A stretch of 60,114 bases of DNA, the filler included, from Hausera hauseri (taxonomy: Eukaryota), in the NCBI GenBank assembly GCA_046269625.1. It is 11 parts of 11 records of this genome, joined end to end, with 100 filler letters (N's around TTAATTAATTAA, not from the genome) between each part and the next. Parts side by side here need not be neighbours in the genome. Positions count along the whole stretch, not along the records: positions 53,709 to 60,114 come from JBJURY010104098.1; 10 more parts are not named here. One strand, 5' to 3'. Shown here piece after piece: positions 25,227-60,114 of this stretch. The position numbers and the translations under genes were made by a program. The notes beneath the pieces were generated by a model. That model was not told the DNA's origin. It worked only from the letters and a program-made list of their open reading frames with translations, and ran no database searches. Every line of letters starts with the position of its first letter. Within the stretch, counting starts at the first letter, position 1.

Positions 25227-25655
25227 TAATCCTATAGGGGGAAAGTTCGAATAGGACTGGCACACCGAAAAGGATTAAGCAAGGAACCTGGAGATTAGAA
25301 ACATTGAGACTTCAAGAGAGAAAACTTAGTTATAATAGGGTTGACATACAGGTGTAGGGCATTGAATGTTTTGGAGATTGTTTTAGTACACAGGGTGTCA
25401 CTATATTTTTTTGTTGCATTGGCACTGATGATAAAAAATTTATTTCAGGTGTATTTGGTATTGACTGCAGGTGAAGTACTAACATATTTTTTTTTCAGGA
25501 ACATTGTAGACGCAATTTTTTCAGGTTAAGTGCTCGATTGGGCACGGAAGGAAAATTAGTTTGTTCTACTAGGGGAAGTTTCACAAATAATAATAAAGAT
25601 ATTGTTTTGGGCTGGAAAGATTAACCTCTAACGGGTAGGTAACGTAATTACAATA

Positions 25656-26822: not shown

Positions 26823-26861
26823 AGGGTTCATACTGGAGCGGAAAGGAATATCACAGGACCC
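26798..26861 (+). promoter_or_regulatory. -1 programmed ribosomal frameshift signal (G_GGA_AAC + putative pseudoknot)
   Basis: Heptamer at 26798-26804 in the gag frame; -1 frame is open into pol; stems GCTCAGTA/TACTGGAGC and GGGTTC/GGACCC. Confidence 0.75.
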
Positions 26862-26887
26862 AAAAAGACGAGAGTAAAGAAGGGGAA

Positions 26888-29800: not shown

Positions 29801-31759
29801 CCTCTCCGGGCGCCGCTGCAGGAACCCGACCGACCGGATTACCCGATGCAGAAAATTAGTATAGATATTACCGGACCCCACCCAGTCACCCTGTCGGGAA
29901 ATAAGTATATTTTACATGTAGTTGATTGCTATAGCGCCTGGCCAGAAGCATACCCATTACCCGATAAGACCACGGACTCAATTATACATGTATTAAATCA
30001 GGAATTCATCCCTAGACATAGTTGTCCGGCTTACTTGGTTTCAGATAACGCCCGAGAATTTACTAGTGAGGCCTTCGAAAATACTCTTAGAACCTTGAAT
30101 ATCAGACATATAACGACCACATTTTTTAACCCGCAAGCTAACGGCATTAATGAACGATCCCATGCTACGCTGTATTCAATAATTGCCAAATACATACAAG
30201 GCAGACAGAATGACTGGGACTTGTACCTAAATCATGCCCTAGCATCCATTAGGACAAACGAGAACGGTAGCACCAAACACTCGCCGTTCGAATTATTGTA
30301 CGGGAGGGAAGCAGTTTTCCCCATGGACCACTTCCTAAAGCCATATCCGAAATATTTGGGCGAAGATTTCCACAAGATCCAATTACAGGAAATGCACCGG
30401 ACTCACTTAACCGTCCATAGGAATCTGAGGAAGGCGTTCGCGAGAGAAAAGCGAAGACTGGACAAAACCGCCGAAATGCAGGAATTTACCACTGGGGATA
30501 GAGTCTATTACAAGCGCCACAATAAGGACTCAAAATTTGATAATCGTTGGTTAAAAGGGTATGTAGTAATTAGGAAAACGGGAGCAGTTAGTTACCGAAT
30601 TATGAACCAGTTAAACAGACGAGAAATTAAAGCAAAAATCTCGCAGTTAAGGAGAGATGTTAGTAGGTGGGAGGAACCGAGAAGACAGGAAGGGGAAAGG
30701 AATCTTAGGAAAACCCGGTACGTGGTAACACCTAGAACAACTGATAAGGATAGCTCAAGTGAGGAAGGGAGAACCACACTGTCGCGATCAGAAAGCGAAG
30801 CTCTGCCAAGAGGTGGGTATACACCCCAGGTGCAACCACAAAATACCCCAGTGAGAGAGAATAATGATAATAATGAAGAGGGAAATAAAGAAGATACGAG
30901 TAGTGAGAGAATCGGGACAATGATGGAAAGACCAACGGTGCCAAGCGATCATGACGGGCCGAACCAAAATGAGGAGCTTTCTAGTGTGGATACGGCAGGA
31001 ACAGGAAACCCCTCTGAAGAATTGTCCACTTACCAAGAGGAACCCGAGGATGCTCCCTTTCGGAACACTAGGGCAGCAACTCGAAGACGAAATGAAGTAG
31101 CCAAAGAGCGACAGATAAGACATAATAGGAGAATACGGGAGCATTCATCTAACGAAAGTGATATTCCCATACCCGAGAGACAAATGAGAATGGAGGATAG
31201 AGAGGAGAGGCGCCAACGAGAAGAGATTCCAATAGGATCACAAGAGAGAGATTTTGGGAGTGAAACACGAGAAGGCCTAGACGAAGAAGAAGAGAGAGAA
31301 GCCGAAGAAAGGGAATTATTAAGCGGGGAGTCTTCATCGATTAGAGAGAGTGAAGATGCTGAAGAAAGGGAATTATTAAGAGGGGAGTCTTCATCGATTA
31401 GAGAGAGTGAAGATGGGGAAGAGAAGGAGGCAGAAGAGGAATCGGAGGAAATGGAAACAGGTAGGAACGAAGCCTATAAGCGACCATATGTAGGTGGTAG
31501 TAGCGATAGTGAAGGTAAGAATGCGCCGAAGCATTTAAGGCCGTCCGCCATAACGCGGAAACTGGAGGAGAAGAGGAGGAAATCCTTGACCGAAGGGAAG
31601 AACATGGTGGAGGTAGGACCGAGCATTGGAGAGAAAACGCGAGTTACGGAGGAAATGGACAGAAATCGCGAAACGAAACAGAGAGAAGGAAAAATAAGGG
31701 GCGCGAAAATAGGGCAGAATATAGTTAAAGCTTGGCGGGGATTATGGAAGCCAAGGTAG
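26888..31759 (+). CDS. pol: Pol polyprotein (PR, RT, RNase H, integrase, long acidic tail); translated as Gag-Pol from ~26804
   Basis: LVDSGA; RFCVDYR, YIDD; CDAS, SDHKPL, ADLLSR; HHCC (H..GH..C..C); IDITGP, SDNAREF, NGINER. Confidence 0.96.
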   Translation: MGRGRKQKERPYQVNLAEDPSSCIVEIGRRRVRSLVDSGAEISLIKESLYRSLKNKGNWFSRKANLQSVSGEPLKVTGSTNLWIRIGKTELEHPFFIVKNMNRGMILGRDFLKKNGVRLYFDLQKLRIGQEYVDLQDDIHIASVLRVGKKTVLKPNSVNIIMGKLRKTPYFREGQTVGTIEIEGDIINEPGLIVTEGIATIRRNLDIPVMIMNSTQKTVALHTGCVISRVVKSNEVIGQEVMGESPGRNSITEGKIDQAPSTGRDNKNMCRNERFSNRDKKGYGNRQVRTIGETRIGKRDHPKENNGREKLKELDPRSGDRIQELLSQLKTEGECRGMMEDFVKRHADVFALNDLELGRTQTVTMEIDTGDHPPISLKPYRTPLKNREIVEKAIEDMLEAGIIERVRSEWSSPVVIVTKADGGHRFCVDYRGLNGVSADVSYEMPHIEYVLALLNKSDFFTTLDARSGFWCIPMSEEAKRKTAFCTHVGSFAWNVMPFGLKGSPATYMSLMDRVLEGMQKFALAYIDDILIHTSGTIEEHLRHVEMVFNRLREHSIKLKLSKCEFAKRETKYLGFIIGRNGIKPDGDKVKAIRQMPAPKTVKQVRGFIGTCGYYRRFIPNFSQIAEPLIALTRKYAKFKWDDDCQHAFDYLKDSLTRIPLLAHPDLSKGFILYCDASDRSIGAILVQEGDEGDEGIMPGTKNEKPIYFLSHKLSPSQQKWGTTEKEAYAIYYAVQKLNFYLHNASFVIKSDHKPLKNWLKTGVQNRRIQTWVLNLQGYSARIEYIPGPENTCADLLSRIPYPEVKAEEEENDSMPEIDDRTWGINVINSDRPHLYDMESNHDQGGESPESEDQMGMEGDMRVEQERDENIKQIKVDLKSGTEEARSKWKHFIVLADDDEVYRIAKDEGRLQKYIPNHLRARVLRQFHDENGHMARDRTYGVISKRYYWPNLYKEVIEYVGQCEVCKLRNMKPLRAPLQEPDRPDYPMQKISIDITGPHPVTLSGNKYILHVVDCYSAWPEAYPLPDKTTDSIIHVLNQEFIPRHSCPAYLVSDNAREFTSEAFENTLRTLNIRHITTTFFNPQANGINERSHATLYSIIAKYIQGRQNDWDLYLNHALASIRTNENGSTKHSPFELLYGREAVFPMDHFLKPYPKYLGEDFHKIQLQEMHRTHLTVHRNLRKAFAREKRRLDKTAEMQEFTTGDRVYYKRHNKDSKFDNRWLKGYVVIRKTGAVSYRIMNQLNRREIKAKISQLRRDVSRWEEPRRQEGERNLRKTRYVVTPRTTDKDSSSEEGRTTLSRSESEALPRGGYTPQVQPQNTPVRENNDNNEEGNKEDTSSERIGTMMERPTVPSDHDGPNQNEELSSVDTAGTGNPSEELSTYQEEPEDAPFRNTRAATRRRNEVAKERQIRHNRRIREHSSNESDIPIPERQMRMEDREERRQREEIPIGSQERDFGSETREGLDEEEEREAEERELLSGESSSIRESEDAEERELLRGESSSIRESEDGEEKEAEEESEEMETGRNEAYKRPYVGGSSDSEGKNAPKHLRPSAITRKLEEKRRKSLTEGKNMVEVGPSIGEKTRVTEEMDRNRETKQREGKIRGAKIGQNIVKAWRGLWKPR
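31304..31415 (+). repeat. In-frame 57-bp tandem duplication in the pol tail
   Basis: EERELL(S/R)GESSSIRESED twice, copies starting at 31304 and 31361, nearly identical. Confidence 0.95.
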
Positions 31760-33603: not shown

Positions 33604-33677
33604 GCTTAATTATTTGCGGTTGTAGATCAGTGATGTGTGGAAATTATAGGGGGCGGCGTTTCTTTTGAACATACCTG
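33604..33677 (-). mobile_element. Tc1/mariner-type TIR inserted at TA in polB
   Basis: Minus strand TA|CAGGTATGTTCAAAAGAAACG; polB similarity stops exactly here. Confidence 0.5.
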
Positions 33678-34690
33678 TATATGACTGTAACTCAATATAA
33701 TTCAGTTGATACATGCTCAACTTGGAAAGATCAAGTACAGCCTGGCCGATATATGAGGGTCTATCTAATGTCACAATGTCTTTACCGAGAAGAACAGCAA
33801 CAAGATCATCGAATATTATAATACTCTCTTTAAACTGAGACTTACTAGCATATGTAACAAGCTTTTTAACATTGTTACATAGTCTCAAGTTTGACCTTTT
33901 TAAGAGGTTTTCAACTGTTTTACCATATAAGTTATTGTTCTTAAGCTTAAAAAAGTCTTTGTCAAAAGGATTTTTTGCTGCAGCCCTCTTAGCAGTGTTT
34001 AGATCAATGTAATCCTTAAAGACATAGCCTTGGTCAAACTCAACACCCGATGAACTTTTCAACTATAGCACCTAACTCCATGCACAACTGAAAGAGCCGA
34101 TAGTGAACAACATAGTTGGACTTACGCTCATGTGTCAGTAACAATTTCTTTACTTTTGAACCTGGCGGACATTGGTTGATTGGGGCTAAAGGAAGTTGGT
34201 CCAACTTATCATGTTTGTCTGCCGAAATGCTTATGTCCACTTCAAAGACTAAGCCTCGTTTCTCCTTAACACAGTCAATGTAAGGTATTTGTTGGATTAG
34301 ACTAGCCAAGACGTCCTCATCGTAAATCCGAGTTAGATTTGCAAATGGCAATGGTTGAGATAAAGCCCAGCCATATAAGTTATTTACATCTATATACAAG
34401 AGATTTGTGCTTTCATATGTTACAACCCTATGCTTATTTACAAAAGTCATGCCACCACGAATACCCGACTGAAAGAAGTGATACATCTCAGGATCCTGGA
34501 TGAGCTCAATCTTACAAGGACTGGTTTTCAGTGCTGTAGCCCAACTTAAACCGGAAATTGAGACAAAGTTAGCGGCTTATAAGCCTTCATGCAACTTAAC
34601 CTCCTTTCTAAACCGCGCAAAGACATCACTTAACAAGTAGACGTCGAGCTTTATATACACCAACATATAATCTAACTCATTCTGACAATT
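33678..34690 (-). pseudogene. polB: Polinton/Maverick/adintovirus-type family B DNA polymerase fragment
   Basis: DYMLVYIKLDVYLLSDVF, GIRGG, YIDVNNLYGWALSQPLP, FFKLKNNNLYGKTVEN, RPSYIGQAVLDLSK; frameshifted. Confidence 0.85.
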
Positions 34691-38514: not shown

Positions 38515-39440
38515 TCTGAGTTCGCATTTGACTGAGTTTCTCGGAAATTCGTCTCCAATTCATAGCAGTAATGGGGTTTTATCCGAACCACACGAGTGTA
38601 ACTACCGTTCGAAAAGTACTTCAGTTCAGTAGCTTCGGCTCTACACACCGGGCAGGTGGTTTTGCCGTTATCTAAGGTCCATTTCTCTAAGCAATCTCGG
38701 CAATATTTGTGTCGACAATCACGGTTATCCAATATAACGTATCCTTGACCGAGGTTCGCCTGGCATACGGGACATTCACTTTCCTCTTTATCCCACTTTT
38801 CATCATTTAGATCCACTCTTATTATGAGCTCTATAGGTTTAAATATGAGACCATCCTTGTCTTGGTATAGGTATCCGTGGATTCTTTTTTGTTCATGGTT
38901 CACAGAACTCTTTTTAGGATCACAGCCTACTGTCACTAGGATCCAATCTGCGATAGTATCTCGATCTAAGTCGGGAACTTCGCCATCCGTTTTATATTTC
39001 TGATACTGCTTTTTCAATAAAGCTTTCATTTGCTTATCCACGGGTAGTGTTAGCTTGCCGTTTCTTTTCAATCGAAATACTGGTGCAATATACTTTCCTA
39101 TTTTAGGGTTTTCCCAAATATAGGTGTTTTCATGTACTTCTCGTGCTGGTGTAGTCTTAATAAAAAACATCGCTTCTTTGATGGTTTGTCGACTATAGTG
39201 TTCGGTAGTTATTGGCATCTTAGGATAGTCTTTAGCGGTCGCAAAATGCATATTCTCTCGGGAATTCTTGTTTCTGAGGATGTTAACCTCCGTAAACAGT
39301 TGTTGGAATCCACTTTCAGCGCTCGTAAGTTTTCTAGGTATCTCTGGGATTGTAATCTGATTATCTGCGGACGTTGTGGGGATTTCTCTTGTTGAACTTT
39401 CGGGTCCTTTATTCACTTCATTGATTCGGTTCTCTTGAGC
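38515..39440 (-). CDS. RING-finger (C3HC4) protein, in frame with the upstream exonuclease ORF; 3' end cut by contig edge
   Basis: CPVC...DCRHKYCRDCLEKW...TCPVCR; only the TAA at 39443-39441 separates it from 39441-40649. Confidence 0.8.
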
Positions 39441-40649
39441 TTAATTTGAGCTTGTCTCTTTGTTTTTCTTTTGGAATAAGTAATCAGTGAATATACATTT
39501 CCTCTTAATCGGGGAATTTCGCGTTTCATCCCTTTCCTGTTGCGGTGGTACTTTGAATGTCTGGATTGCTTCTTTTTCCTTAATTGTAGATTTTAGTTCT
39601 GGAATTGGTTTAACGCGGGAATTGTAACTGGTGCTGGGCCTGTCGGCACTCGATTGATCTGATTTCCAAATGGTTATTTTGATATTGTTTTGCCCCATTG
39701 GTTCCGCGACTCTACATGGTAAATATGAACGATATTGCTTCCGATGCTTTTTATTGATAAGTTCTGGGTCGGATGTGTTTCGTAAATTTTGTTCTGGGTT
39801 ACTAGGTGTCCACTCATGGTCCCATTTTAACGCTACATAAATATCGCGTAGGTATTGAGTGCGTTGACTTGCGGTTAAAAATTTACTAATCTTAACATGT
39901 TTGCTATTTATGGCGTCTACCATCAATTTGAAATAGGCGTCAATAACCTTTGGTATAGGGTAATTTCTCTCTCGTAATATTCGTTTACTTTGTTCGGCGA
40001 CTACTGGATGTGTCCCTATTTCGCGCATTCCTGTGATGCTTGTTATGGGTATTTCCAAGAGTTCGATAATACTATCGATACGATATCCAGTTACGATGTA
40101 ACCATATAAACAATGCTCTAACTCGGCCTGAACAAGTTTGATGTCTTTACCTCTTGGACATGTCTCCTTACGAATTCCTGTCATATTGTAGTGGGTCTCA
40201 AAAACGCGTTTTCTTGGGCTAATAATCGTACAGTGTACTTCTGTTCCGTTTGTTTCTCGAACGGAGACTTCGATGGGAATCATTTTCACGTCATCCCCTT
40301 CTCCACAATTGATCGCTATGATTCGAGTATTTCTGGCGTCTTGCACTAATCTATACGATCGTAAGAATTTGTCCAAATCTTTTTCTGACGGTTTCTGATA
40401 GAATTCCAGGGACGGCAGTTTGATGTAAGGAGGATCGGCATATGTGACTTCGAACATTAATTTTATGGGGAGGGCGGCTACTCTGAATTCTAATTCATAA
40501 TTCTGTAAATCTTGGCTGCAGAGACTGAGAATACTGAACCTGTATTGTCTTCCGCTGCTGGTGTTCCATTCTTGGTCTTTGAACCGGTAGTATATCTCGC
40601 CATCTGCCAGGTGAATATAAATGTTCTGGTGAGTTTCGTATGTGATCAT
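39441..40649 (-). CDS. DEDDh/REX4-like pseudo-exonuclease
   Basis: IIAINCGE (cf. AIDCEM), PIEVSV, TIISPRKRV, MTGI, VQAELEHCLYGYIVTG, MREI. Confidence 0.75.
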   Translation of the reverse strand: MITYETHQNIYIHLADGEIYYRFKDQEWNTSSGRQYRFSILSLCSQDLQNYELEFRVAALPIKLMFEVTYADPPYIKLPSLEFYQKPSEKDLDKFLRSYRLVQDARNTRIIAINCGEGDDVKMIPIEVSVRETNGTEVHCTIISPRKRVFETHYNMTGIRKETCPRGKDIKLVQAELEHCLYGYIVTGYRIDSIIELLEIPITSITGMREIGTHPVVAEQSKRILRERNYPIPKVIDAYFKLMVDAINSKHVKISKFLTASQRTQYLRDIYVALKWDHEWTPSNPEQNLRNTSDPELINKKHRKQYRSYLPCRVAEPMGQNNIKITIWKSDQSSADRPSTSYNSRVKPIPELKSTIKEKEAIQTFKVPPQQERDETRNSPIKRKCIFTDYLFQKKNKETSSN

Positions 40650-41118
40650 TTGTTTGAGTGAATACGCTTAGGCATCCTTGTCTTCTCTCATGGCGTAAAG
40701 ATAAATAATCTTATTTTCTTCGGTTATACCCTTTAAGTTATTAGGAATTCTACTGGTCCGATTATACTTCACGAAGGTTCTATCATGTGATTCGTTGTTA
40801 ATTTCTCGAAATATCGATTTAGAATTTGGGAGAAAAACAGTGGCGTAGTTCTGTAAGAATTCGTCGATACTAAGTCGACGTTTTGACGATTCATCGATAC
40901 TACATCGTTCTCATCCTTGGGTAAATCGCGATCCGTCGATCCTAGGTCGTCCGGCATCCGTTTTCGTAATTCTCTCTGATCATCGGTCTAAAAAATAAAC
41001 AGTAATGGTTAATCTTACAGCACAGAATGGTTTTAAAATGAAACCAATTCTTGGTTTGGTGAAAGAATAACCCAATCTGTAATTGTCAAGTTATTTTATC
41101 GTAGACGTATTTTTGGGG

Positions 41119-42399
41119 TTACCATACCCTTAATTCCCGTTTTACGATTTTAGAGCGCTTAGTATGACAATTTACGTCAATTAATCGAAATATCGCGATA
41201 CATATTATAAGCACAAGCGTTGACAAACTTACACTCAGTATTATAGTCAGTGTACTCAACTTCTCAGATTCCGTAATCGTTGCTCTTGTTGTAGTCTCTG
41301 GTCTTGTGTTTTTGTCTACTTGGGGTGCTATTCGTATTTCTTCCTATGTTTGTATTGTGAAAGTTTGGCTCTGTGCATCTTTTGCATGTATTTGTATTAT
41401 GTATTCTGTTTTAGGTATGAGTGAATCACATTCGGTGTGATATGTGTTCTTGTGCAGTGTAGTTTTTATATGCTGGTACACAGTGCGGCAATTTATCTCA
41501 ACATCGTAGCTGAGCTTCTCTTCCACTGAGAAGACTATTTTACGTGATTGTCTCCAGTATTTTACAGGAATCCTGAGTAATTTTCCTTTACTCGTTTTCT
41601 GAGTTATAGTAATTTCGGAAGTGGTACTTATCGGAACGATTTGTCTCGTTGAAGTTGTTTCGACTGCAGTGTTCCAGATCCTGCTGTCTGGGTGATATCG
41701 TCCTAAGTAAGTACTCGACTTATTTTGCTGAATTCCATAGAGGTCAAAATGAATCCTATATTCATGACCTTCTTAAATTTTACAACATGTGCTAAGATCT
41801 TCAATTTTTAGACTGCAATATTTAGGCATTGAGCTTAACTCCTTTATTTTTGTGAATAGAACTGAAATCTCTTGTCTACTTTGTAGTCTTCCTTTCGTGA
41901 TTATTTGGATGCATTTGTCTTGCTTGTTTTCTGAAATAGTAACTATGTCTCCGAGTTCCGTTGTGTTCCCTCGCTCTTTAGCGGGTATGACCAACTTTAC
42001 TTGTGACCTTATTACTCCTTGTATACGTTCGTACATTCTGTAATACATTCGTATTGTGAAGGTGTAAGTGTCTCCATAATTCACGACACAACAATTTTCT
42101 TAAGCTCCATACGGAAAATTACAATAGGTCATTACTCGTTGTTTCGCATTCAATATGACTACTTGATATCTCACTGATTTTCTAACGGGTCCGTCCGTCT
42201 TAAATGACATGCAGTCTCGTTTGGAATCTATGCATTGGACCTTAAAACGGTCCAAGGTACTTAAGTCGTTTCTTTTTGTCATTATCAATTCATTCTTTAT
42301 TCATTTATTTAGTTGCTGAATTAGTCCTCCTTGAGCGCTTGCTCTAGGAACATATGAGGCTATTAATGATAGTGCTAAGACTATCTGTATATAGGACAT
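41119..42399 (-). pseudogene. Type-I membrane protein in the env position (signal peptide, Cys/FN3-like repeats, Thr-rich stalk, TM), four premature stops
   Basis: One reading frame continuous with integrase; MSYIQIVLALSLIASYVPRASA signal; DSLIPKTEYIIQIHA; TM LTIILSVSLSTLVLIICIAIF followed by a basic tail. Confidence 0.7.
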
Positions 42400-42775
42400 A
42401 GGTCTAGTGACTATAGATGAGGTTTTGACCTTCCTACATTTTGTTCTCTGGTTCGCTTTCATATCCTTGCTACGTAATTGGTATCGTTTATCTGGTCTTA
42501 TTTCTGTTTTTACCACTCGTTGTATTGACACTACTTCCTTTTTTCCGTTTTTATTAATATAGACTGTAGTGGGTGTTACTCTGATAACTTCGTACGGTCC
42601 TCTTCCGGTACGCGTGAGCTTCAATGATGTGCCTTTCTTAGCTACTGGATAGTCACATAAACCTAATCTCCGTTTCTTAAATCGTGTGGTTTCGCCTTTT
42701 TGTCATATTGCTTCTTAAATCCTTCTTGATATTCTAAGGATAGCGTCTTCGCTACTTCCCAACACTTTTGTAATC
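42400..42775 (-). pseudogene. Ty3/Gypsy integrase C-terminus (GPY/F module)
   Basis: KLTRTGRGPYEVIRVTPTTVYI...VVSIQRV. Confidence 0.8.
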
Positions 42776-43208: not shown

Positions 43209-44594
43209 TCACGTGTTGTGAACATCAAATCGAATGAATATTGTATCATTTTTGCAAAACATATCTTTTGATAGAAGTTTTTCCATTGCAATAAACTTTG
43301 GAGAGCCCGATGCTGTGTTATACTCTGATGTAGGTTGTAGATAGCACATAATATCCGCTTTGGGTTTGAACGTTTCTCTCAGATCTTTTCCAATATCTAA
43401 CTGATTTATAAGACTTATGGACACCTTTTGGTCGAATGGCCACGTAAGAATATCGTCATATTCTCCTTTCATAACGGCAAAAAACACGGATAAGTGAGAC
43501 CCTTTACCGAGTCCATCTCCATCAGGATAGACTTTCAAACACAATCTGTATCCAAATTGCTTGGAATAAAATGGATCACTGATAATATACGGCTTTCGAC
43601 CATTTTCTGCTTCTAATTTCTTTCTCGAAAATTCTGGAATCCTCCATACAAAACTCCCGCAGATGTAAGGTACATAGGATGGAATCGATAAATCCATTTG
43701 TAATTTCAGTGAATTCATATCATTTTTCAGAGAATTCAAAAAGTCTGTAGAACTTCTTTGAATTGACAATAACTCTTTTACTAACACTTCCTGTTGACTT
43801 ATTTTTGTTGTCAAATTATTTACGGTATGATTTAACTTGTCTATCTCCATTTCCATGGAAGATACGATAGAACCGTATCCATTCTGAAGATGGTAAAATG
43901 CCTCCAGTTTAGACATCGCATTAATGTCACAATCAAAATTGTGGAAGGGGCATTTTATTTTTTGTTTCTGGCACATTTGTCGATGACTGTACCAATTAAC
44001 TGGACCTGTGACGTCACATTTATTAATACAGAGTCCAACAAGCAATTTGCACAGTCCATCTGCATTGATATTTCCATGCACCTCATCGAATTCCTTTGCA
44101 GTTAACGACAATCCACAAGCTGGACAATTGGTGGATCTCATAGAGCACAATTCACTTTTGTGTACCATCTCATCGACAAATGCGTACGGTTTAGCACATT
44201 TACCACACACGACTGGACGATTGATGCAATTCACCAGATGGTTAGAAATATCCTTTAGAACGCTCTGAAAATCACATAGACGGAAAGGACATTTAACCGG
44301 TAAAAGAGATATTTCTTTATTAATCGCGTTATCCACGAATGTCTCCTTCTCATTGTCAGATAATTTATAATTGCACTCACTAAGTCCACTTGGACATCGA
44401 GCAGTCCCTGCCTCGATTTCCGATAAATACTGTTGACTACACGAATTGCACATTCGGCAACCACATGAGATCTGTACTGCATTGTTGAGAACATTTTTGC
44501 AATATACACATTTCAGTGTATCCTTTATCTCTTCAACGAATGTAATATCATATTGATGTCTGGTTTTAATCATATTCTGTATGATTTTATTCAT
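43209..44594 (-). CDS. TRAF: TNF receptor-associated factor (TRAF2/3/5-like), intronless
   Basis: RING, TRAF-type zinc fingers, coiled coil, MATH domain (FVWRIPEF, SDPFY, GYRLCLKVYPDGDGLGKGSHLSVFF, LTWPF, ASGSPKF). TATAAA at 44652-44647 and TCATT upstream; AATAAA downstream. Confidence 0.95.
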   Translation of the reverse strand: MNKIIQNMIKTRHQYDITFVEEIKDTLKCVYCKNVLNNAVQISCGCRMCNSCSQQYLSEIEAGTARCPSGLSECNYKLSDNEKETFVDNAINKEISLLPVKCPFRLCDFQSVLKDISNHLVNCINRPVVCGKCAKPYAFVDEMVHKSELCSMRSTNCPACGLSLTAKEFDEVHGNINADGLCKLLVGLCINKCDVTGPVNWYSHRQMCQKQKIKCPFHNFDCDINAMSKLEAFYHLQNGYGSIVSSMEMEIDKLNHTVNNLTTKISQQEVLVKELLSIQRSSTDFLNSLKNDMNSLKLQMDLSIPSYVPYICGSFVWRIPEFSRKKLEAENGRKPYIISDPFYSKQFGYRLCLKVYPDGDGLGKGSHLSVFFAVMKGEYDDILTWPFDQKVSISLINQLDIGKDLRETFKPKADIMCYLQPTSEYNTASGSPKFIAMEKLLSKDMFCKNDTIFIRFDVHNT

Positions 44595-45099
44595 GTTTCA
44601 ACAATTAAATGTTTAGTCGCAATGAAATTAACAAAACAACGCTTCATTTATAATGCAGTGATTATCAAACCAAATTTTTAAATCGTAGTTACTAATTATA
44701 GATTACGATGACTTTTGGATAAAAATAGATTTCATTGACTTTGGAATTTAGCAGAAGTGTATGTTGGCCGCGGACGTATCCACGCCGCCCATATCATCGC
44801 CCAGCTTGGGTAGGGTTGGAAAATCCCCGCCCCCTGATATGTCCGCTAAGGCGGAATTTGATCGTTTGTAATTACTCATTGCAGAGTTAACATCAATTGT
44901 TGAAATTTTTATTGTCTCTCAAAATACTCATTTGGAAACAAATTTTTCGAAATTCCAAAATTAAATTATACTTCTAATATTACATTTTTAAATTAAATTT
45001 TTAAAATTTAAAAATGTTTCTAATTTAAATTTAGAATTTCGGTTCTTGATTATATCCTCACATCCCCCTTTTTTAAGTATCTTCGTAGTTTCTACGTTT

Positions 45100-47180
45100 C
45101 TCTCCAAGGTTCGGCCATCTTTATGTCGTAGTATGTATCGGATTCTGGATGAAATATTTTGTTGCATGGCACAACACAAAGTGCTGTCATTGACATACAA
45201 GTTTCACAGGAGTAGAGAAACTCTTGCGATGTCCTTGCTTGAATCATACCACACATCTTCGTGCAACCACTGCTTTACTTGGGTTGGCTAGAATTACGTT
45301 CAAGAAATACTGCCCACGCAATTTTGACAAATCGGATGCTGTGTGATGCAGAAAGGATGTGCCTGCAGCTGTGAGTTCTTCACGGTCTTCTGTCTTGAAT
45401 AGTTCTGTGATTACTTTTGTACGAAATCACATTTGTCTGTGGGCACTACGCGTCTTCTTGTACAGCATATAAGAATTTGTCAATGCCATGTCAATGAAAT
45501 GAACGACGACTTTCTTGTACCAGTGTAATGTTTTCCAGAGAGGACAGCAGTATGAAGTCAGCTGGTCTGTTTTATCAACAACACATTATATTGTTGTAAC
45601 TGATGGTGCAATCTGGTTTTCTTATGGTCTCGCCTTTTCTGTTTCTCGCTTGACTGTCCATCATTCGACCAGGATGAAATGTAGTCAGCATGAGAACTTC
45701 ACGTTTGTCATGCCATTTCAGGATGACAATCCGGCCAAAACGTTGTCTTTGTTTGGTAGCCATTTCCTGTTACGGCGTAGTGTGCTTCCTAACAGTGTTT
45801 TGTTTTTCAACAGTTCTTGTGCAAGTGGTATGGCAGTGTAAAAGTATGTCGACACAAAATTCATTTCAAAAACAAAGACACTTTTCCATTAGCTTCATCA
45901 CAACAGCCCATGCCGCTGATGATTTCTGTTTTGCCACAGTAAACAATAGCATTCCATACGTAGCCACTGAGTTCACATAATAAGTATAACTTTACACCAT
46001 ACTTGTGTCTCTTTCCGGGTATGTATTGTCGAAATGTCAAACCGTCACGCCACAGTACCATTGTTTCATCTATGGATAGTTCCTTTGTGGATGTATACAC
46101 TATTTGATAATTAACGATCAAAGCGTCACACGCACTTCGTAGCTTGTTAAGCCTATCTCCTTTTTTGCTGTCGAATTATCAACAAAATTCCAAAACTTTA
46201 TCAGCAGTTCAAATTGGTTTCTGGGCATTATGCTGTTAATGACGGGGGCGGCAATAACAGGATCTGTTGATCAGTAATTCTCAACAACTGGCTTTTTGAC
46301 AATTCCCATTATCCGTATCAGACCCAAGAACTTTTTCATTTCAACAGCATTTGGTGGGTTCCAGTCATGCATCCTGCTTCTTGGTTTCAGTTGTTTTTGC
46401 TGTAGAATCTGTTCAGCATATCGATTAGTTTCTGTAACCATAATCTGAATTACATAATCTGTCATGAACAATGTGAAAAAGTCTATTGGCTGTACGTCAT
46501 CTGTCGACGCTGTTACTGAATGTGATATACATGAAACAGCAGTGATCGCTGTCAGAAAGTGGCATTTAGCAGTCAGATACATGTTGCCAGACATCAGATT
46601 CAGTTTCAGCCGCCACGTCACAATCCTCTGTACCCTATGTATTGTCTTCACAACTTTCCACCTCTGCTTCCACGTCTGATTCAGCAGGTGTTGGATCTGG
46701 AGCCATTGAAGATGTGTTACATTTGCTTATTTCTTTTTTTTTCTGTTTGGAGTTTACAGTAGACTGGATCCTGGATGCTCCCAGGTTGGCTGTCAGGTTT
46801 CCTTTCGGTAGCCTGGTTTGAACGAAAATCATATTCATCTGGACATTCATGATCACTTAGTCCGGAACTTTCTCTATCAAAATCATCTGATTCAAAAGAT
46901 TCAGACTCAGATCCTGTTGCCAACTGCAGTTCTAACACTTGTTTTTTGTTATATTAACGCTTTGCCATTATCGTCCTAAAGTAAACAAATGTGCACTAAA
47001 TATCAATGATACAGAAGAGCCAGTAGTAGTCGGTAAGTCAGTAATAATTTCAAAGCCAACATGTTATATTACTACCATGTATGCCTTCATACATCAGCAG
47101 AAACTTTACCTAAGCGCCGGACATCCAATTATGCACCATATAGTGACTGATGAGTATACTCGTCAGTAACGGACAATGTG
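45100..47180 (-). mobile_element. piggyBac transposon (PGBD4-like transposase), decayed
   Basis: TTAA|CACATTGTCCGTTACTGACGAGTATACTC terminus at 47180; SIDETMV, QYIPGKRHKYGVK, WHDKREV, KPDCTISYN; C-terminal RRCVV..CETC..LCVVPC cysteine-rich domain. Other end not identified. Confidence 0.9.
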
Positions 47181-50548: not shown

Positions 50549-50871
50549 TCAGTCCACCAACATTAATTCCTCAACTTTCCAATCCTCATAAGCACCACCC
50601 GGTAAATATCGTCGGATTATAAATGGAATTTTGCCGACACACAGTTCTTTTTCGACAATTTTTAATGGATCCCGCTCTCCATCTAATTCTACCATAATTG
50701 GAGCACATAATGAAATTTGATTTACCCGCATGCCCAACACTCGCGCACGTTCGTATTTCGTTAAATATGGAGTTGTTTTGCGTTTGTTTCCTTCAACTGT
50801 AAACATCTGAGACGCATCTTGTGGTTGAGTGCCACTGGAAATGACGGCATTCTCTTGCTCGTTTGTTTCCG
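50549..50871 (-). CDS. RPB6: RNA polymerases I/II/III subunit RPABC2 (RPB6), last exon, divergent
   Basis: [34 protein letters not shown]...[16 protein letters not shown]; TTTCCAG acceptor before 50871; 5' exons unresolved. Confidence 0.9.
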
Positions 50872-52107
50872 CTGGAAATATAGGGTTACATCAACAAAAA
50901 ATCAAAACTCAACAATTTGTTCATTGTCTGATCCGTCTTGTGTGTGGCAAAAAGTCTAAAAAATTATATTTTCAAAAATAATTATCGAAACAATTCTGAA
51001 GCAAAATACAGGAAAATTGATAGTGTGCAAAGTTTAGCTTAATTTTATATAGATTGATTCTAAAATATAAGCATTTACACGAATGACAAATTCTATGTGA
51101 AATGTTCACAACAGGAACAGTTAATCAAATAATATGACACAAATAAGTTGTTTACTGACATGGAAACATTACATCACCAAACTAAAATTTGCTACAGGGT
51201 GATAAACATAAGATGGGATATTCGTTTATTTAAAGTTTATTACATTACCTTGTTTTCGTTGGTAAATTAATAAATATTTACTGGACATCTCTTCAAAAGA
51301 TGTTCAAGTAATGTTCTATGGATATTTAAGAAGCAATTAATCAAAACGTTAATATGCATAATTCAAAGAACGAACTGAACCTAAATTTAGTAACTACTTT
51401 TCCAACAAAATTGATACACGACCGGTGCAACACAGAAATTATACGGAATGTTCAATGCCTAATAGTGATCTAACCGGATTGTGAATCATTGTTTCAGAAC
51501 ATTATCATCAGCAGCTGGTTTATATGAAAATATATTCATATTGACGAATTAGAATAATCAAATTTAAGTCCACATAATAGTACTAGTAGGTACGTGTTGT
51601 ATTAAATAATTCCAACAACGCATTTTATACGTATTTACATATGAAATCCAATTTGACCTAGGTAATTTAATGGAATAGGATAAATATCCAATCAGAAATC
51701 GGAATCGAAAATAGTCATTAGAATTACACAGACGTACTAACTGTGCAAACAATTTTATGAATGCTCACTTCACCTCCAATATAAAATCAAAACAAACATT
51801 GCAACAATCAAATTGGAAAACATGACTGTAAATCTACAATTGATTTAACAAACGAGTGAGTAATATTGAAATATTCCCTTTCAAAAAACGTATAAACGGA
51901 TAATTAGTGTCAATATGTAAACAATAAAAATGACGCTAGTTAATTTAATGTTCTGTGTGCAATAAATCAACTATATAGAATAGTGAAAAAACGGCTTAAA
52001 TTTTTCAATACTAAAATTTCTTATATTACAAATCTGTTAAATTACGTAAAATTACTTAAACTGTATAAATCAAAAGCACTAACATAAGACGATACATTCA
52101 AAATTTA

Positions 52108-53229
52108 TTAAAAATAATTATTTTCAGTAAAATTGCAATGTTGGTATGTAGGTGCACCAAAGTACTGAATATCGGTCTGCATACCTTTTTCCTCTGTACA
52201 CTGTCCCAAGTTGAGCCCATTTTCGCTAGTAATCTTAAATAATGAAAATAAATAATGTTAAAAAGAAGTAAGATGTACCTCATTGTCTGTCTGCGTCTCC
52301 TTCACCTGACACATATCCATTAACGTATTAGTTTGTGTAGAAGCCGATTTTTTTACTTTCCTAATTTCACTGATAATTTGACCTTGCCTTCCCATCACCT
52401 TTTGCATATGGGCATTCTGTTGTTTCAACTGTTCATTCTGCTGCCTCAGATCAGTATTCTCCTTCTGCTGCACTTCATTTACCTTCTTCAGATCAGCTAT
52501 CTCCTTTTCCAACTGCGGTAGCCGTTGCTCAGTGTTCGATTTCTTTTGAATTTCAAATCTCATATTGAGATTTGTATGCAAACTGGGATTATTTACGTTA
52601 TCCAGTTGCATTGTTTCCAATATCTCTTTTTCACCCAATTTCGATCTGAGACGACTTTGCCGACGCTTTTCGGTTTGACACTTCCATTTGTCTACTAGTT
52701 CATCCCGAACAGCAATACGTTCCTGCGTATTGTTACAATCTTCCTGTGCCTTTGCCAACTGTGCCAACCGATGCTTAGTCATTTTCACTTGTCCGCTAGG
52801 TGGAAGGATAAGTCTTTTAATAGGTGCAGTCCGTTTGTTCCCACTTCCTTCGCACATATCTGATTGTCGGCTACATGACTGATTAAATTTCTTTATTGGT
52901 ACAACAGTTTTCTTTTTCTCAATTGGTGCGGCTTGTTCCTCATCAGACAAAAAATCGTCATCATCCGACAAAGTGACAGATAAATCCTTGCGCAGTTGGT
53001 CAATATCCACAGGCAACTGTCTGGCAACTGTCCCTGATATCTGTTTCTGACCTTCTGACAATTTTGAGCACTCTTCAATCAACTCCTGCGTTAATTTTTC
53101 AGTGGGTATGTAGACAGGAACATCATCTGGTACTTGTATATTGTAGTCTGTTCCATCCTTCCGCTGCTGCTCCAGTGCAGCGACCACTAAGCTTTGCTTT
53201 TCAGCATCAGAAAAAATTGTTTTTGGCAT
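52108..53229 (-). CDS. Uncharacterised coiled-coil protein with three LC8-binding-type QT motifs; two exons (53229-52279, 52233-52108), 358 aa
   Basis: TATATAA (53269-53263) and TCATT upstream; 45-nt GT..AG intron at 52278-52234; stop overlaps AATAAA; motifs KSASTQT, VKETQTD, EKGMQTD. Confidence 0.75.
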
Positions 53230-53569
53230 TGTAAATTAATGACAAAATAATGACACAGTTCCTTATATACTCTACGTAATATACCGTAACGTAATATGTA
53301 TATTGTATTACAATACATTAAATGTGAAATATTAACAAATGGTACAATTTACGTTGCGGAATATTAAATAAATTGTTCAACAAAATCTTGCGTTATGACA
53401 ACACTTTTATGCAAAATAACAAACAATGAAATAATTTATTAAATTTTACATTTGAATAAAAATTTTTCATAACAATGATACACCTATTACAAGTCCGATG
53501 ACAATCTTTACAACAGTAATATGCCCTGATTAGTATTTTTATATAATATGTTAGAGGATCAATATATCG

Positions 53570-53608: not shown

Positions 53609-56600
53609 NNNNNNNNNNNNNNNNNNNNNNNNNNNNNNNNNNNNNNNNNNNNTTAATTAATTAANNNNNNNNNNNNNNNNNNNNNNNNNNNNNNNNNNNN
53701 NNNNNNNNGTTCCGTCAAATCAGAATTGTAGTAAAAATTCGAGTAGATCGAAATCACCTATAAATGAAGACGGTCCACAGAGTCGGCAGAAATGGTAATC
53801 TAATTTGTTACATATGTGGACAAGAAGTACACGTAGCAAGGTCCTGTCCAAACCCACGAAGTGTTTTGTTTGTTGAACATAGCAAAACTATTGTAATTAA
53901 AAATGAGAATTTAGAAGCGATATCCGTAATTATACGAGCATGATTATCGAAATACAAGATTTACGACGTTTTTTGAAGGGTCAGCCTGATACTAATGACC
54001 CCGAAGTCTTAATGGCTAGGAATGAGTATGAGCACAAGTTGCGACTACTGGAAGTATATCATGGCTCCCGTGAGCCAGAAACTGAATATGAAGACTCAAT
54101 ATCCCCGCCAAAACTCATTGACATGGCACGAAAAAAGAATGTTCCTGCGATTACTAAGGTGCCAGGGAAACCGAATGAACTGAAAATTTTGGATGAAGTA
54201 GATTTAGATGCGGAACCTGAATATACGTTTGAAAAAGTAAATAAATCTAGAAGTTGATGAAGAAAAAGAATTTATGGAACCATTAATACTTAAAATTACG
54301 AAAACCGAGGCCGTAACCCTTCGTTAAAGCGAAAACGTAAGGATCGTTTGCGATCTCCTATGACTAAGGAAAATGTAGACACAGCGAAAGACTGAAATAG
54401 CTTTAGAAAGCGACGTAGAATTCAGTCTGAATACACCTGAGGTTGATTTAGCTTCACCTGTCGGAATAAAAGAATTAACTGAATCAGTAAACGAAGTAAA
54501 CTATATATGTCCAGTACCTGCTAGTGAAGAAGAGAAAGAACAAAGTGAGTGGTTTAATCAAAAAGGCTGGAAAATCAGACATTCGTGGAAAAATGCGGAT
54601 GAAGTAAATAAAATGCGAAGTAATTGTCTTGATCCAAGTTTTACAGCAAAATTTAGAGAAACTTAAAGAGATGAGCGAACAAGTAGACATTTCTGGTAAG
54701 GAACAACAATTTGTGGAAATATTGTACACAAATTGCAATTACGTAGTGAAGGGAAGCTCAGCGAAGAATTAGACTTAGAACAACCTGAAAAAGTATCACC
54801 AGAAACGTTGGCAAAATGGAAACACGAGTTAGAATCGTGGATAAAAAGTGGAATCAAATTTCCAGAAGAATGGGATAGATATACCGAGGATGTCGAAGTA
54901 ATAGTGGAAAAAGCTCAGACATTACTGACTATGTAACTTAGAGCGTGTTATGGATGGAATTAGTTTTGAAATGGTTGAGCGACTCAGAGAAAAAAACGGT
55001 TAATAAACGAAAATAATAAACGCAAATTTATAATTTGAGAAGCAGAATTATGTATGCGAATAATTAGGAAACAGAATATAATTAAGGCCTGTATCCTTGA
55101 ATTCGATGAGTACAAAGATGAGTTCAAGTATGCCAAGCAGATTATAAAAGGCCCTGATGACGAATTGGAAGACGCTTACAAAACGCTAGACAAAGCAATA
55201 CTGGCGAAAGCTGTAATAGGTAATCAACTAAGGGAATGATCCGGATTAATATGGAGACTGAGTCTGGTAGCGGAAAACCGGATAAAATAGTTCCCAGAAA
55301 GTGAACCAATAGTGAAGCCACAATTAGGAGAAACTTCATGAAACTTTGACACTATGAGGGCAGAAGCAGATATCCGAACGAATTTAGTGAATTGAGACCG
55401 TTAGAATTTATGAGTAAAACGAAAGAGATGACTGTCCTGAGGGAAATATATAAAATGATCGAAGAAACGGACTTTGAGTTGAAACGAAACTTGACATGCT
55501 AACTCTACCCATGCATTCGATGGCTTCGCCTAATAGGAGTCAAAAACTTAACGGAAAAGCCCTTAGGCGATTTTACAACGCAAGAACTGCAAATGTTATG
55601 AATTTTTTCAGATCATGAGAACTTTATTGTAGATGCGTTAAAGTTGTTGCACAATCCAACTAATTGGGTACTTGGAATGGATCAAAATTGGCACGCTACA
55701 TTGGCAGAAATAATGGAAGACCATCGACTTGGCGTTGAAAAAACAAGCTTCGTAAAGCAATTGATTGCAGAGATCGATACAGATTATAAAATCTTAGAAG
55801 AGATAAGTAAGTTGGTCCTATTGTTATTCGAAATGGCCAAATGAATGATGAAAAGATAAGACAGCTACAGACCCGAATATGCCAAGTTCGTGAAATGCAA
55901 ATTTGCACTGATCAGAGAAAAGCAGCAATAGATGAATTAACCCAAGAATTGGAAATTTGTCGAAATAAATATGCTATTACGGAGACAGAAATAGCTGACA
56001 AATCACAATTTGTGCAAAGATGACAAAGGGACGTAGCCTCTGAACTAACTAACTACGAAGAAAAGGATTGATCCAAGCCGACGAATTATGCCAGTTGTTA
56101 ACGTTATTGCGTCAAACTTCAGTAAATGGACGTTGTTTCCGAACGACATAAATTGTTAAAATACAACAAAAACTACGCGAATTGAGAGAATCGATACGTG
56201 ATACGAACGCAGTTTGACCAGCGGATATGCCAGTAATTGATTATAGATCGCCAGAGAATGAGTACGATCCAGAATGGGATGCGTACGTAGATGCAATGGT
56301 TTCCGAAAATTCGAAAACTCTTGTACATTTTTACGAAAAGGAGACGTGCTCACAGGATCGGAGATTCAGTGAGGAAATGCTTCTAGATTCGACGCAGACT
56401 GAAGATTTAGGTAACTTAATTAATGTAAACATCGTAGAAAATAAGTTAAGACAGTTCCTACCATTACTAAATTATCTACCGAAAGTATAGTGTATAGCGC
56501 CATGCCAAAACTTTTATTAAAGGAATATGCTAAAATCTTAAAGCTAAACCCGAAGAGGCGATTAAAGTAAGGATGTCGTCTAAATGGATGGATGAAAAAA

Positions 56601-57509
56601 GAAGAGTTTAATACGCGCTCTTTCGTAAGAGACGTAAAACAGTGGCTAATAAATAAGCAGTGGTGGTGGAAACGAACTGAATTATATATTCTAATTTAGA
56701 GGTAGAATATTATACGAATTGCAACAACTAACAGATGTTGGGATCATCCCAGATGAAATAAATCATATACTAGCAACGGTCACAACTGAGGAAACGAAAG
56801 AAGTCTCTCGAAAGGCTAAAACTAATCAATGTGTAGGACGGGTTATGGAAGTTCGAGACGCAGCAATGTACTTCGAATACTTGCAAACAGAAGACAAAGA
56901 ACAGTACGATAAAAATTTACTACCACCTAGTGAAGTCATATCAGTTACGACGAAACAGAAACGTCCTGTCGGCAGACCACGTATGATACAGGAAGAAATC
57001 GATTATAATGGAGACTTGTTTAGAGAACTAAGACAGATGTCCATACCTACCTTCAGTGCTTAGAAAAATTTAATACTCATAGTAAATCTCTCTTGTCTCC
57101 ACAGCGATGTACTAGATGAGAAAGAAAAAGCTATACATAATGCAGCCAGGACGATGAGAAATTTCCGTTTTCGAATATCAAAAATCACTCTAACCGATGA
57201 GACACTGATCGAGAAAATTATGATAGAGAATACCGTAGAAGAGTTAAGAAAAGTATTACTATATTTGACCAGTAAAACAAATCCGACTCGAGAAAACGAA
57301 TTTAAGAGCCACTAGCCTAGCGCGGAAAGCCGCCAGAAAATTACCTCGAGATGTAAATTTGTCGAAGCTATTTGAAAAAGAACATCAAAATATGCCCTCC
57401 TCTAGCATTAGTAACAGCAGACTTGAAGACAAGGTACGAAATTTAACCGGGAATAACCGAGAAAACGAGTCCAACTGACTAATTAACTTCCTAACTGTGA
57501 TGATGTTAA

Positions 57510-59350
57510 TTGGCTAATTAACTTCCTAACTATGGTGATATTAATAAGGCAAATGGGAGCTGTTACAATGTATGACTGAAAAATTCAAACTTGGTCAAGA
57601 TATTCATTAATGCATTTAGAGATGTACGAAGATGCAAGACCATATAAATTAGAGACGAAAGAGAAAAACTACGTACTGTATTAACAACGTGAGTGAGTCT
57701 CATTAGATGGAATAGAATGCATGCTGCGACGATCTCGCAGTATCTTCCATTGTGGACTAATCCAGACACTCCTCCATAATTAAGCCTACGACCCCACCAA
57801 TCCCAATGAACTTAGAACGCCAGCATTGTAAGCAAGCTAGAGAAACAGGTAGACTACAATGGGATGGCATGGAACTTGAAATGCAGCAAGGGAAAATAAT
57901 CAGAGCATTTAAAGTAGCAGCAGGAAAACTAGATATGCACAAGGGACACTTTAACGGCGCTGAATGATACTTGTAAGAGAATAGAATCAAACATAGTGGT
58001 TGTTGATTTCTACGAAACCGATATGCGAACACGAAAAGTGATGTTTCATAATGTTACTAAACTTGACATTGAAAACCAAAAGTCCCATATTCAAGACGGC
58101 ACTTGTGCTTTTAGAAGTTCAGTAGTAATTTGGGAACCTCCAGCCAAAACCGATTGCAATTTTATCAAAATTAAAGAATTAAAGTTTAATAAAACGACAA
58201 GAAAACTATATGTAAATAGTATATATTCTAACTCGAAAACAAGAGAAGACGTAGCTGAACAACCTACACCTATTATATAAATTTCCGATACTCATGAACT
58301 AAAATCTGTGAAGGACGTACTCACACGATGTGATGTAGTAATGTATGCCACTAATTATGAAGCATTTTTGTAGCTGAAACAGATAAATGCCAAAACATTC
58401 AAGCTTGAGACTTAAGATATACGAATTGAAGATTATCTGAAAAATAGAGATGACTATTTCTATTACAAAGGACAAGTCGGAATAACCGAACTGTACCACA
58501 AAATGATGACGAACGACTGTAAATTAGATTCGGAAATTATTAGAACTAAACTGGTTTTAATATATGCCAACCCCGAGCTAGCATCACCGAAAATTTCAAT
58601 GAAGGAAGGTGTTTTTGGCCGAGTGACCGGAAAAGTTTTTCTGACCTCAGTACGAAAAAAGAGATGTGCATATTAGTGTTGAAGAAAAGAGATGCATACA
58701 AGAACTTCCGGTATTATGTCAAGATAGACCGTGATTAGTGACACCTATTACTAGAATTTTACTGGCAAACTCAACTCAGCCAACAATTTTGAAGGATTGT
58801 AAACCGAGTCTGGGAGAACCAATGTTTAGACGTAGCGAAACTGATGGGGTAAGTCTACCAAACGGAGTTATAATCACTCCACCCATAAAGCTAACAGGAA
58901 CAAACTTAATAAAAGGAATAACCGATGATAAATTTAAAGACACCGCAGTCAAAGGCATTTATAGACCAAAGAAGTTGCAGTATTTAGATAATTTCTTGCT
59001 TTTCCGTGCCAAAGGAAGCATGAACTAAACCGAGCTATAACGATATTAGAGGATACGCGTTATCAAGCGAAATGGAAATCACTACTTGATGTTAACCATT
59101 ACCAAAGAGTAACCACAGAATTATTGTATAAAATTTGGGGAAGATTTTTAATTTTCAGTTAAGCCGCATCTGGATTTTTAGCAATTTATTTCTTAATCAA
59201 TCTGGTTAAAGCCGATTTTCGTGTAAAATTCTAACGGCTATTGTCACACCATTTGGTAAATTCCTAAAAGCTTACGCAGAAAGTAAATGGAAAGCGGACG
59301 TTGAACGGCATGTTGGTTACTACAATCGTAAAGGTAAAAGGAGAAATATT
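57510..59350 (+). pseudogene. env: Chuvirus-G/herpes-gB-like (class III) envelope glycoprotein
   Basis: Signal peptide, then MYD*(C)...YSL; EC...IFHCG; CKQARETG; DGTC...VIWEP...DC; GVFGRVTG; CIQELPV...VTPITRIL; pre-TM/TM WGRFLIFS*AASGFLAIYFLINLVK. Confidence 0.75.
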
Positions 59351-59961
59351 TAATTACAAACGGAAGATTATTAACATGAAAACGGGAAGAAATGTTTCTG
59401 ATGATGACGAGCCTAAGGAGAAGACGCCATCTCCAATATAAGTGGACACAAAAATTATTCCATTATAAAACCAGCGTTAACCATATTACCGCCAACTGCG
59501 CCTATATATGAATATTGTTAGAAACAATCTGAGTTCAAATCAAACGGATATCTATAGAAAACCGTTCAGCCTTGAGGATCCTTATGAAGGCACAAGACAC
59601 TACGGTGTATTACGCAAAGTACACGAAACTAAAAGAACATCTGCTCCATATCGTCGTTCAGCAGTTGACGACCACGGAATACTTTATTCACCTACAATAC
59701 TCAAGACGAACGAAATACGATAAACATTTTCAAGAGACCACGAAAGGCAGACTTAGGAACCAAGAAATGCAGTCACCAGTTAGAAGTCATGAAACAGAAA
59801 TCGTCAATTGCGCAAACAATGAGCTGTATCCAAATGGAGAACTAAGACGGTTAATGGTTCAGCCAGTTGCAGCCACAGAAGTTAGAATTAACGGATATAA
59901 AGTATCAACAATTCTGCATCCAAAAATAGCACAGAATTACTATGGTACGGTTATTGAAGGT

Positions 59962-60114
59962 AGACCCTTCGCGAAAATTCAGTTCGAAGATTAGGAAGTT
60001 TACGCACTGATAGACACCGCATCCGAAATATCGCTGACAAAGCATGACTCAATACCGCAGTTTGTACGGAAACAATTATATCGACCTTCAACAACAGATC
60101 CAGGAAGTATTTGA
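59962..60114 (+). pseudogene. Retroviral-type aspartic protease N-terminus (start of pol)
   Basis: RPFAKIQFED*EVYALIDTASEISLT. Confidence 0.7.

Follow-up and report, generated by a model that had tools for sequence, protein, structure and literature searches.

A probable dead fragment of a Burro-like GAG-ENV-POL retroelement in a contig of Hausera hauseri

The window analysed here, a stretch of 60,114 nucleotides (nt) from Hausera hauseri (assembly GCA_046269625.1), consists of contigs of 4-9 kb with 100-nt spacers between them, all alike (44 N, a 12-nt linker and 44 N). Its final piece (53709-60114, 6.4 kb; JBJURY010104098.1) bears the remains of a retroelement in which an envelope glycoprotein gene (env) lies between gag and the start of pol. 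A CCHC zinc knuckle of Gag, a long decayed coding region (X), env from its signal peptide to its transmembrane segment (TM) at 57508-59230, a cytoplasmic tail and the beginning of an aspartic protease (PR) follow one another in that order, all in the same contig and on the plus strand (Table 1), and the strand and purine biases are unbroken along the element. A preliminary description made from the sequence alone had listed the knuckle, a decayed open reading frame (ORF), a glycoprotein from signal peptide to TM and a protease motif on one contig and strand, and our analysis agrees with that list, with modest support for the protease.

Table 1. Features of the element in the last contig, with positions along the window
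Feature	Position	Strand	Evidence or remark
Gag nucleocapsid CCHC zinc knuckle	53806..53847	+	Pfam zf-CCHC, E 3e-4, 21.2 bits (cut-off 20.8)
Region X, ~1,200 codons of decayed coding DNA with no recognisable domain	53850..57480	+	coding-like compared with shuffles
Tandem duplication in the env signal region (35 nt, copies 86% identical)	57473..57542	+	repeat search; one frame break of the copy
Internal env signal peptide (putative)	57508..57561	+	hydropathy peak at 57514
Class III fusion ectodomain of the chuvirus G/herpes gB type	57562..59135	+	colinear PF24664 matches
Pre-TM motif and transmembrane anchor	59136..59230	+	PF24664 517-565, E 1e-6; hydropathy peak at 59139
Cytoplasmic tail or linker (~730 nt), probably coding	59231..59955	+	4 breaks, 8.1+/-1.7 in shuffles (minimum 4), marginal
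N-terminal part of a retropepsin-like aspartic protease (~50 codons), stopped by the window end	59956..60114	+	hidden Markov models of relatives' proteases

The env assignment rests on PF24664, the Monjiviricetes fusion-protein model, which is matched colinearly by four single-frame pieces between 57514 and 59210 (model positions 5-88, 265-377, 392-494 and 517-565; E 0.037, 4.6e-7, 5e-4 and 1e-6, respectively). Just two hydrophobic peaks were found, at the signal peptide and at the TM, and they bound these matches; the whole env span contains 9 stops and is divided among five frame pieces. The last residue of the signal peptide is small and stands three positions ahead of M-Y-D, which corresponds to the [AG][YF]DC motif of related proteins, and the residue at this presumptive -1 position is likewise small, in the same register, in 20 of 21 relatives. 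Upstream of the signal, residues 111-140 of one relative (P0001), its pre-signal segment, align to 57416-57508. The preliminary description had called the glycoprotein gB/chuvirus-like and proposed a structural comparison with chuvirus G and gB, which was made with the AlphaFold model (pLDDT, the predicted local distance difference test, 72.7; pTM, the predicted template modelling score, 0.42) of P0004, a natural env relative 27% identical to the env core of the window. This model matched both, namely chuvirus-like glycoprotein G structures (best E 1.6e-38) and gB of varicella-zoster virus and herpes simplex virus (HSV) (E 6.5e-13, but with a low TM-score, a measure of structural similarity, of 0.26-0.29), and Atlas places P0004 with PF24664 clusters (0.96). 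The env family is accordingly described here as one predicted to fold like chuvirus G and herpes gB.

The knuckle, with CX2CX4HX4C spacing, is the sole CCHC motif on the plus strand of the contig and matches the knuckles of two relatives, P0052 and P0054 (tblastn, E 1e-4 and 0.002); the contig begins downstream of the rest of gag. X, previously estimated as ~3.5 kb of decayed ORF, spans ~3.65 kb and behaves as coding DNA: crossing it takes 25 breaks, compared with 49.8+/-3.8 in 100 shuffles (minimum 41), and it has a coding score of +63, the null maximum being -29 (60 shuffles). A non-coding control stretch scored like its own null in the coding test. No Pfam family above cut-off was found in X, nor any significant match to hidden Markov models (HMMs) of reverse transcriptase (RT), RNase H (RH), integrase (IN) or Gag. 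The sole support for calling it helical are weak coiled-coil Pfam matches at about 55830-56100 (Nsp1_C, E 0.006, below cut-off). Beyond the knuckle, a tblastn search with 24 long relatives revealed nothing in X that is clearly homologous; one weak match outside the knuckle was to 30 aa of P0059 (E 0.007).

Between the TM and the protease there is no LTR-like repeat (LTR, long terminal repeat) and no purine run of at least 13 nt that could be a polypurine tract (PPT), and LTR-like repeats were likewise absent across the whole contig, which covers the internal region alone; the earlier statement that no LTR, PPT or obvious non-coding gap separates env from protease holds, the tail being probably coding. 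No CCHC motif or significant Gag HMM match precedes the protease in the tail. From the pre-TM Trp to the catalytic Asp (60013) there are 292 codons, compared with 131-669 up to the first protease in 22 relatives. The Asp motif reads DTA, with Ala where the relatives carry Gly, and is the only such motif on the plus strand of the contig. Four full-length HMMs of the relatives' proteases rank 59956-60075 best and above every shuffle (7.3 vs 6.1, 11.4 vs 1.9, 9.6 vs 5.5 and 5.1 vs 3.7 bits; 200 shuffles each for the models scoring 11.4, 9.6 and 5.1), the clearest score coming from the model built on the protease that immediately precedes RT (11.4 bits). The protease is the weakest part of the observation. 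Two other candidates in this region were discarded: CE2_N, matched in Pfam below cut-off at 59860-60020 (E 4e-4) and taken as chance, and a degenerate protease start at 59866-59916, which was unproven and scored below its null.

One frame of the env region, used as query in an exhaustive HMMER search, rendered 35 matches, 34 of which are env proteins; P0035 is spurious. A word-indexed homologue search with the env core against proteins of 435-2000 aa found nothing among 463 candidates. All 11 of the 34 relatives that extend at least 200 aa past the pre-TM motif run from env into a DTG protease; of the remaining ones, 5 stop 61-120 aa after the motif and 18 are fragments or lack it. A second search, with P0001 env and limited to proteins of 1,570-4,997 aa and hence biased towards fusions, rendered 16 proteins, 12 of them new, and env is followed by protease in the 12 new ones, which makes 23 out of 23 once these length-selected proteins are added to the first 11. 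Nine database proteins of 2,627-4,057 aa (P0006, P0052, P0055-P0058 and P0060-P0062) contain CCHC, X, env, PR, RT, RH and IN in one chain. The unusual order that the preliminary description had attributed to a whole lineage is found in the relatives, and its question of whether RT, RH and IN follow the protease is answered affirmatively in these nine. The comparison indicates that gag-X-env-pol is an inherited trait of the lineage and not a local rearrangement.

The relatives have further features of their own. A Bcl-2-like domain precedes env in P0004 and P0054 (Pfam, below cut-off), a BH2-like motif is present in 4 of 21 relatives, and P0056 has ubiquitin/SUMO-like and ankyrin domains. Retropepsin repeats are common: two lie between the env TM and RT in 8 of the 14 relatives that reach RT, P0002 and P0007 have 3-4 of them (four in P0007), and a further protease follows the integrase in 8 of 13; P0001, P0002, P0007 and P0051-P0060 are among the proteins with repeats. 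In many of P0006, P0051, P0052, P0055-P0058 and P0060-P0062 the C-terminus after the integrase holds two more hydrophobic segments, which may be a further signal-like stretch and a TM, with a presumably luminal domain between them, that is, a second membrane protein in the polyprotein. P0006 is labelled as coming from a Flavobacteriaceae metagenome-assembled genome, and with its animal-type polyprotein it is probably from a mis-binned eukaryotic contig.

In-frame env between gag and pol has been described before. ORF1 of the planarian element Burro is a polyprotein of 4,873-5,140 aa with Gag and its CCHC knuckles, MATH, SUMO-like and BCL2 accessory domains, an env matching mononegavirus fusion proteins, and PR-RT-RH-IN (Arkhipova & Yushenova 2019, PMC6431247, which cites Grohme 2018 and Jurka 2007 on Burro/GYPSM1); decaying Burro fragments are known from Dugesia japonica (PMC6431247). 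GAG-ENV-POL elements with gB-type env, which are not monophyletic, occur in Nematoda, Bryozoa and Platyhelminthes (Chary & Hayashi 2026, PMC13524379, citing Sacco et al. 2022 for nematodes). The supplement of that paper holds 10 elements from bryozoans, 9 from flatworms, 72 term matches for Nematoda, Schmidtea elements in up to 215 copies, and six Schmidtea env sequences that are 32-64% alike (six pairs shown). The novelty of the order implied by the preliminary description does not stand, as it was published in 2019, 2022 and 2026.

The element shares with Burro the Gag knuckle, a long accessory region (X sits where Burro has its own), the mononegavirus/chuvirus-like env and the protease, on one strand and without a gap, and the Bcl-2-like, ubiquitin/SUMO-like and ankyrin domains are met in the relatives of its env. 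It shares with the GAG-ENV-POL errantiviruses of HSV/gB type both the order and the env class (class III, with signal peptide and TM), although these are intact and often multicopy, whereas the copy here is decayed. By eye, the Schmidtea env sequences (PMC13524379) are far closer to the relatives of the window env than are those of bryozoans, nematodes or branchiopods; they are 32-64% alike among themselves, while the window env is 22-30% identical to database relatives. Burro is a giant element (>25 kb) of a dugesiid planarian; the fragment here is of 6.4 kb, shows a single knuckle (the contig starts within gag) and was compared with Burro by its published description. Burro is a single in-frame ORF; the order and the lack of a non-coding gap are found here, the original frame is masked by decay, and nine relatives have the single frame. 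Troyka has a CX2CX8-10HX4C knuckle and no env (PMC12440569) and was rejected as a relative on both counts. In Anakin (BEL/Pao) and in certain gypsy elements of arthropods, env usually lies 3' of pol. The env of these elements belongs, as here, to a class like chuvirus G and gB (Dezordi 2020, as cited in PMC13524379).

We consider it highly likely, on these grounds, that the contig holds an internal piece of a dead gypsy-type LTR retroelement in an invertebrate genome, one of the GAG-ENV-POL kind (Burro-like, an errantivirus of HSV/gB type); its ancestor most likely encoded one polyprotein. It is a decayed and divergent member of an already known kind of element, and the present copy has no activity now. 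Several observations weigh against this reading. X shows no Bcl-2-like domain (an HMM built from 4 relatives scored below its null), and no ubiquitin-like, SUMO-like or MATH match in Pfam, decay lowering the sensitivity of these searches; since the accessory domains of Burro were not detected in X, the element is labelled Burro-like and not Burro. From CCHC to the env motif there are ~1,254 codons, compared with 248-918 residues in the CCHC-bearing relatives with a located motif, and X varies among relatives with no clear homology to X here. The env core is 22-30% identical to the longer relatives, and in the maximum-likelihood tree (32 rows) the window env forms a long branch, with a long-branch warning, outside the 92/91 group that holds the relatives. 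In P0025 RT-RH precedes env, of which only part is present, and this env family thus occurs in another order too. The protease piece had no protease match in Pfam or PDB searches, and a half-length protease HMM scored below null (-2.1 vs 2.7). Finally, the only visible pol in the copy is the start of the protease, and pol class and in-frame continuity are not seen directly; RT is not visible because the window stops 100 nt past the catalytic Asp.

As for the placement of env, a first tree (34 rows, quick search) was distorted by two partial rows, and a second one was made without P0025 and P0033; neither included 13 short fragments. In neither did the window env fall within a well-supported clade or nest among the relatives sampled. 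On alignment and tree together, the window env appears to be a distant cousin of the sampled relatives, and its divergence would reflect either a more distant branch or an inflation by decay.

Among the alternatives, the one that survives best keeps the same order but has separate gag, env and pol ORFs, env being produced from spliced or internally initiated RNA. PMC13524379 treats GAG-ENV-POL as arrangements of ORFs, and its main text does without the terms 'polyprotein', 'fused' and 'single ORF'; the decay of the copy, moreover, masks the original continuity of frame. On the other hand, Burro is one ORF of 4,873-5,140 aa (PMC6431247), nine relatives have all the parts in one sequence, and in the copy itself coding-like DNA reaches the signal peptide, the region just upstream aligning to the pre-signal segment of P0001. 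P0056 (4,057 aa) and P0057 (3,761 aa) come from contigs of at most 12,631 and 12,004 nt, which they nearly fill, leaving little room for introns, and this argues against spliced gene models. We regard separate ORFs as unlikely; a single polyprotein, as suggested in the preliminary description, is very probably right, judging from the relatives.

Still less probable, in our opinion, is a composite locus, in which a chuvirus-like glycoprotein, either an endogenous viral element or the 3' env of a gag-pol-env element, would have come to lie beside an unrelated retroelement, the order being a nested or tandem accident. The unusual length of X and its lack of a clear match to relatives would suit such an origin, as would an env branch that is not nested among the env-PR relatives, the env family 3' of RT-RH in P0025, and heavy decay by which short LTRs could have eroded. 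But X is without trace of RT, RH or IN, and none of the pol HMMs matched anywhere in the contig, though the same models detect frameshifted pol in other contigs of the window (21-226 bits), which rules out a hidden gag-pol-env. Neither gag nor LTR nor PPT was found in the 730 nt ahead of the protease, the strand and purine biases are continuous, and the spacing from TM to Asp is as in the relatives. Same-order relatives also score best against the env core, with 80-108 bits for most of them and 67 for P0014, compared with 41-63 for P0025, P0027, P0028 and P0031 (41 for P0025). That DTA marks no protease and that env was the final gene of a non-autonomous gag-X-env element, as the missing Pfam and PDB matches, the half-length HMM and the Ala at the third motif position could suggest, is the least probable of the three, given that four full-length HMMs choose the site above all shuffles, that the motif is unique on the plus strand of the contig and that it is placed where 22 relatives have their first protease.

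Returning to the GAG-ENV-POL element with a one-polyprotein ancestor, the ancestral product would most likely have been one long polyprotein arranged as Gag-X-signal peptide-Env ectodomain-TM-tail-PR-RT-RH-IN. Gag-X would be made in the cytosol, and the internal signal would direct the ectodomain into the endoplasmic reticulum (ER), where host signal peptidase would cut it from Gag-X, which may remain tethered to the membrane through the signal stub. The release of Env by signal peptidase, as guessed in the preliminary description, is plausible, agrees with the sequence and would be the best mechanism. The TM would halt the transfer, so that tail-PR-RT-RH-IN would be back in the cytosol, joined to Env, and the element's own protease would then release Pol and mature Gag. 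Pol would thus enter particles via the Env tail and not by a Gag-Pol frameshift, and a trimeric class III fusogen would permit spread from cell to cell.

The repeated proteases of the relatives, which the Burro section of PMC6431247 does not mention, might enable Pol, while tethered to the membrane, to form a protease dimer within one molecule, which is speculation. More broadly, the element could represent a deep, separate GAG-ENV-POL branch with its own accessory region of 1,200 aa, whose host might belong to a phylum other than those of flatworms, nematodes and bryozoans, and the group may use an undescribed packaging route, with Pol tethered to the Env tail and tandem proteases as a self-dimerising cutter that needs no Gag lattice; we hold this wider proposal to be doubtful. 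The gene order being no discovery, the copy is one more divergent fossil among elements that have received little study. It bears on how a Gag-Env-Pol polyprotein made as one chain passes through the ER and is cleaved, and on the role of the repeated proteases; a single literature search listed no test of either, and the material for the polyprotein question is the intact relatives and not the decayed copy.

The other contigs of the window contain gypsy, Polinton-like polymerase and piggyBac sequences, BEL/Pao by eye, and animal-type genes, for which reason the host is taken to be an invertebrate. The minus strand of 38515-42775 carries the 3' end of another large gypsy-like element, whose integrase C-terminus is 30-52% identical to relatives. 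With it lie a signal-like stretch, a RING-finger ORF, a piece that is fibronectin-like (Pur_ac_phosph_N, E 0.006) and an ORF of 408 aa that by eye looks like a DEDD exonuclease; all this may form the tail of a giant element of related kind. An ORF at 20705-21727 (+) with a weak RNase_T match (DEDDh exonuclease, E 0.006) is like accessory genes of large retroelements, and at 25632-31759 (+) lies a gypsy element that lacks env, has gag and pol apparently intact and ends in a long acidic C-terminal tail. An intronless TRAF/MATH gene at 43209-44597 (-) has distant database relatives (26-47% identity; the named ones are from vertebrates or a rotifer), and no link was found between it and the MATH_TRAF domains of Burro. 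Polinton-like fragments of type-B DNA polymerase, a fragment of piggyBac transposase and BEL/Pao-like pol pieces (by eye) occur at 33610-34576, 45861-46726 and 9482-13209. The contig before the element holds a divergent single-exon Rpb6-like ORF (50549-50890, -; PF01192, E 3e-6), adjoined by a 325-aa coiled-coil ORF at 52258-53235 (-).

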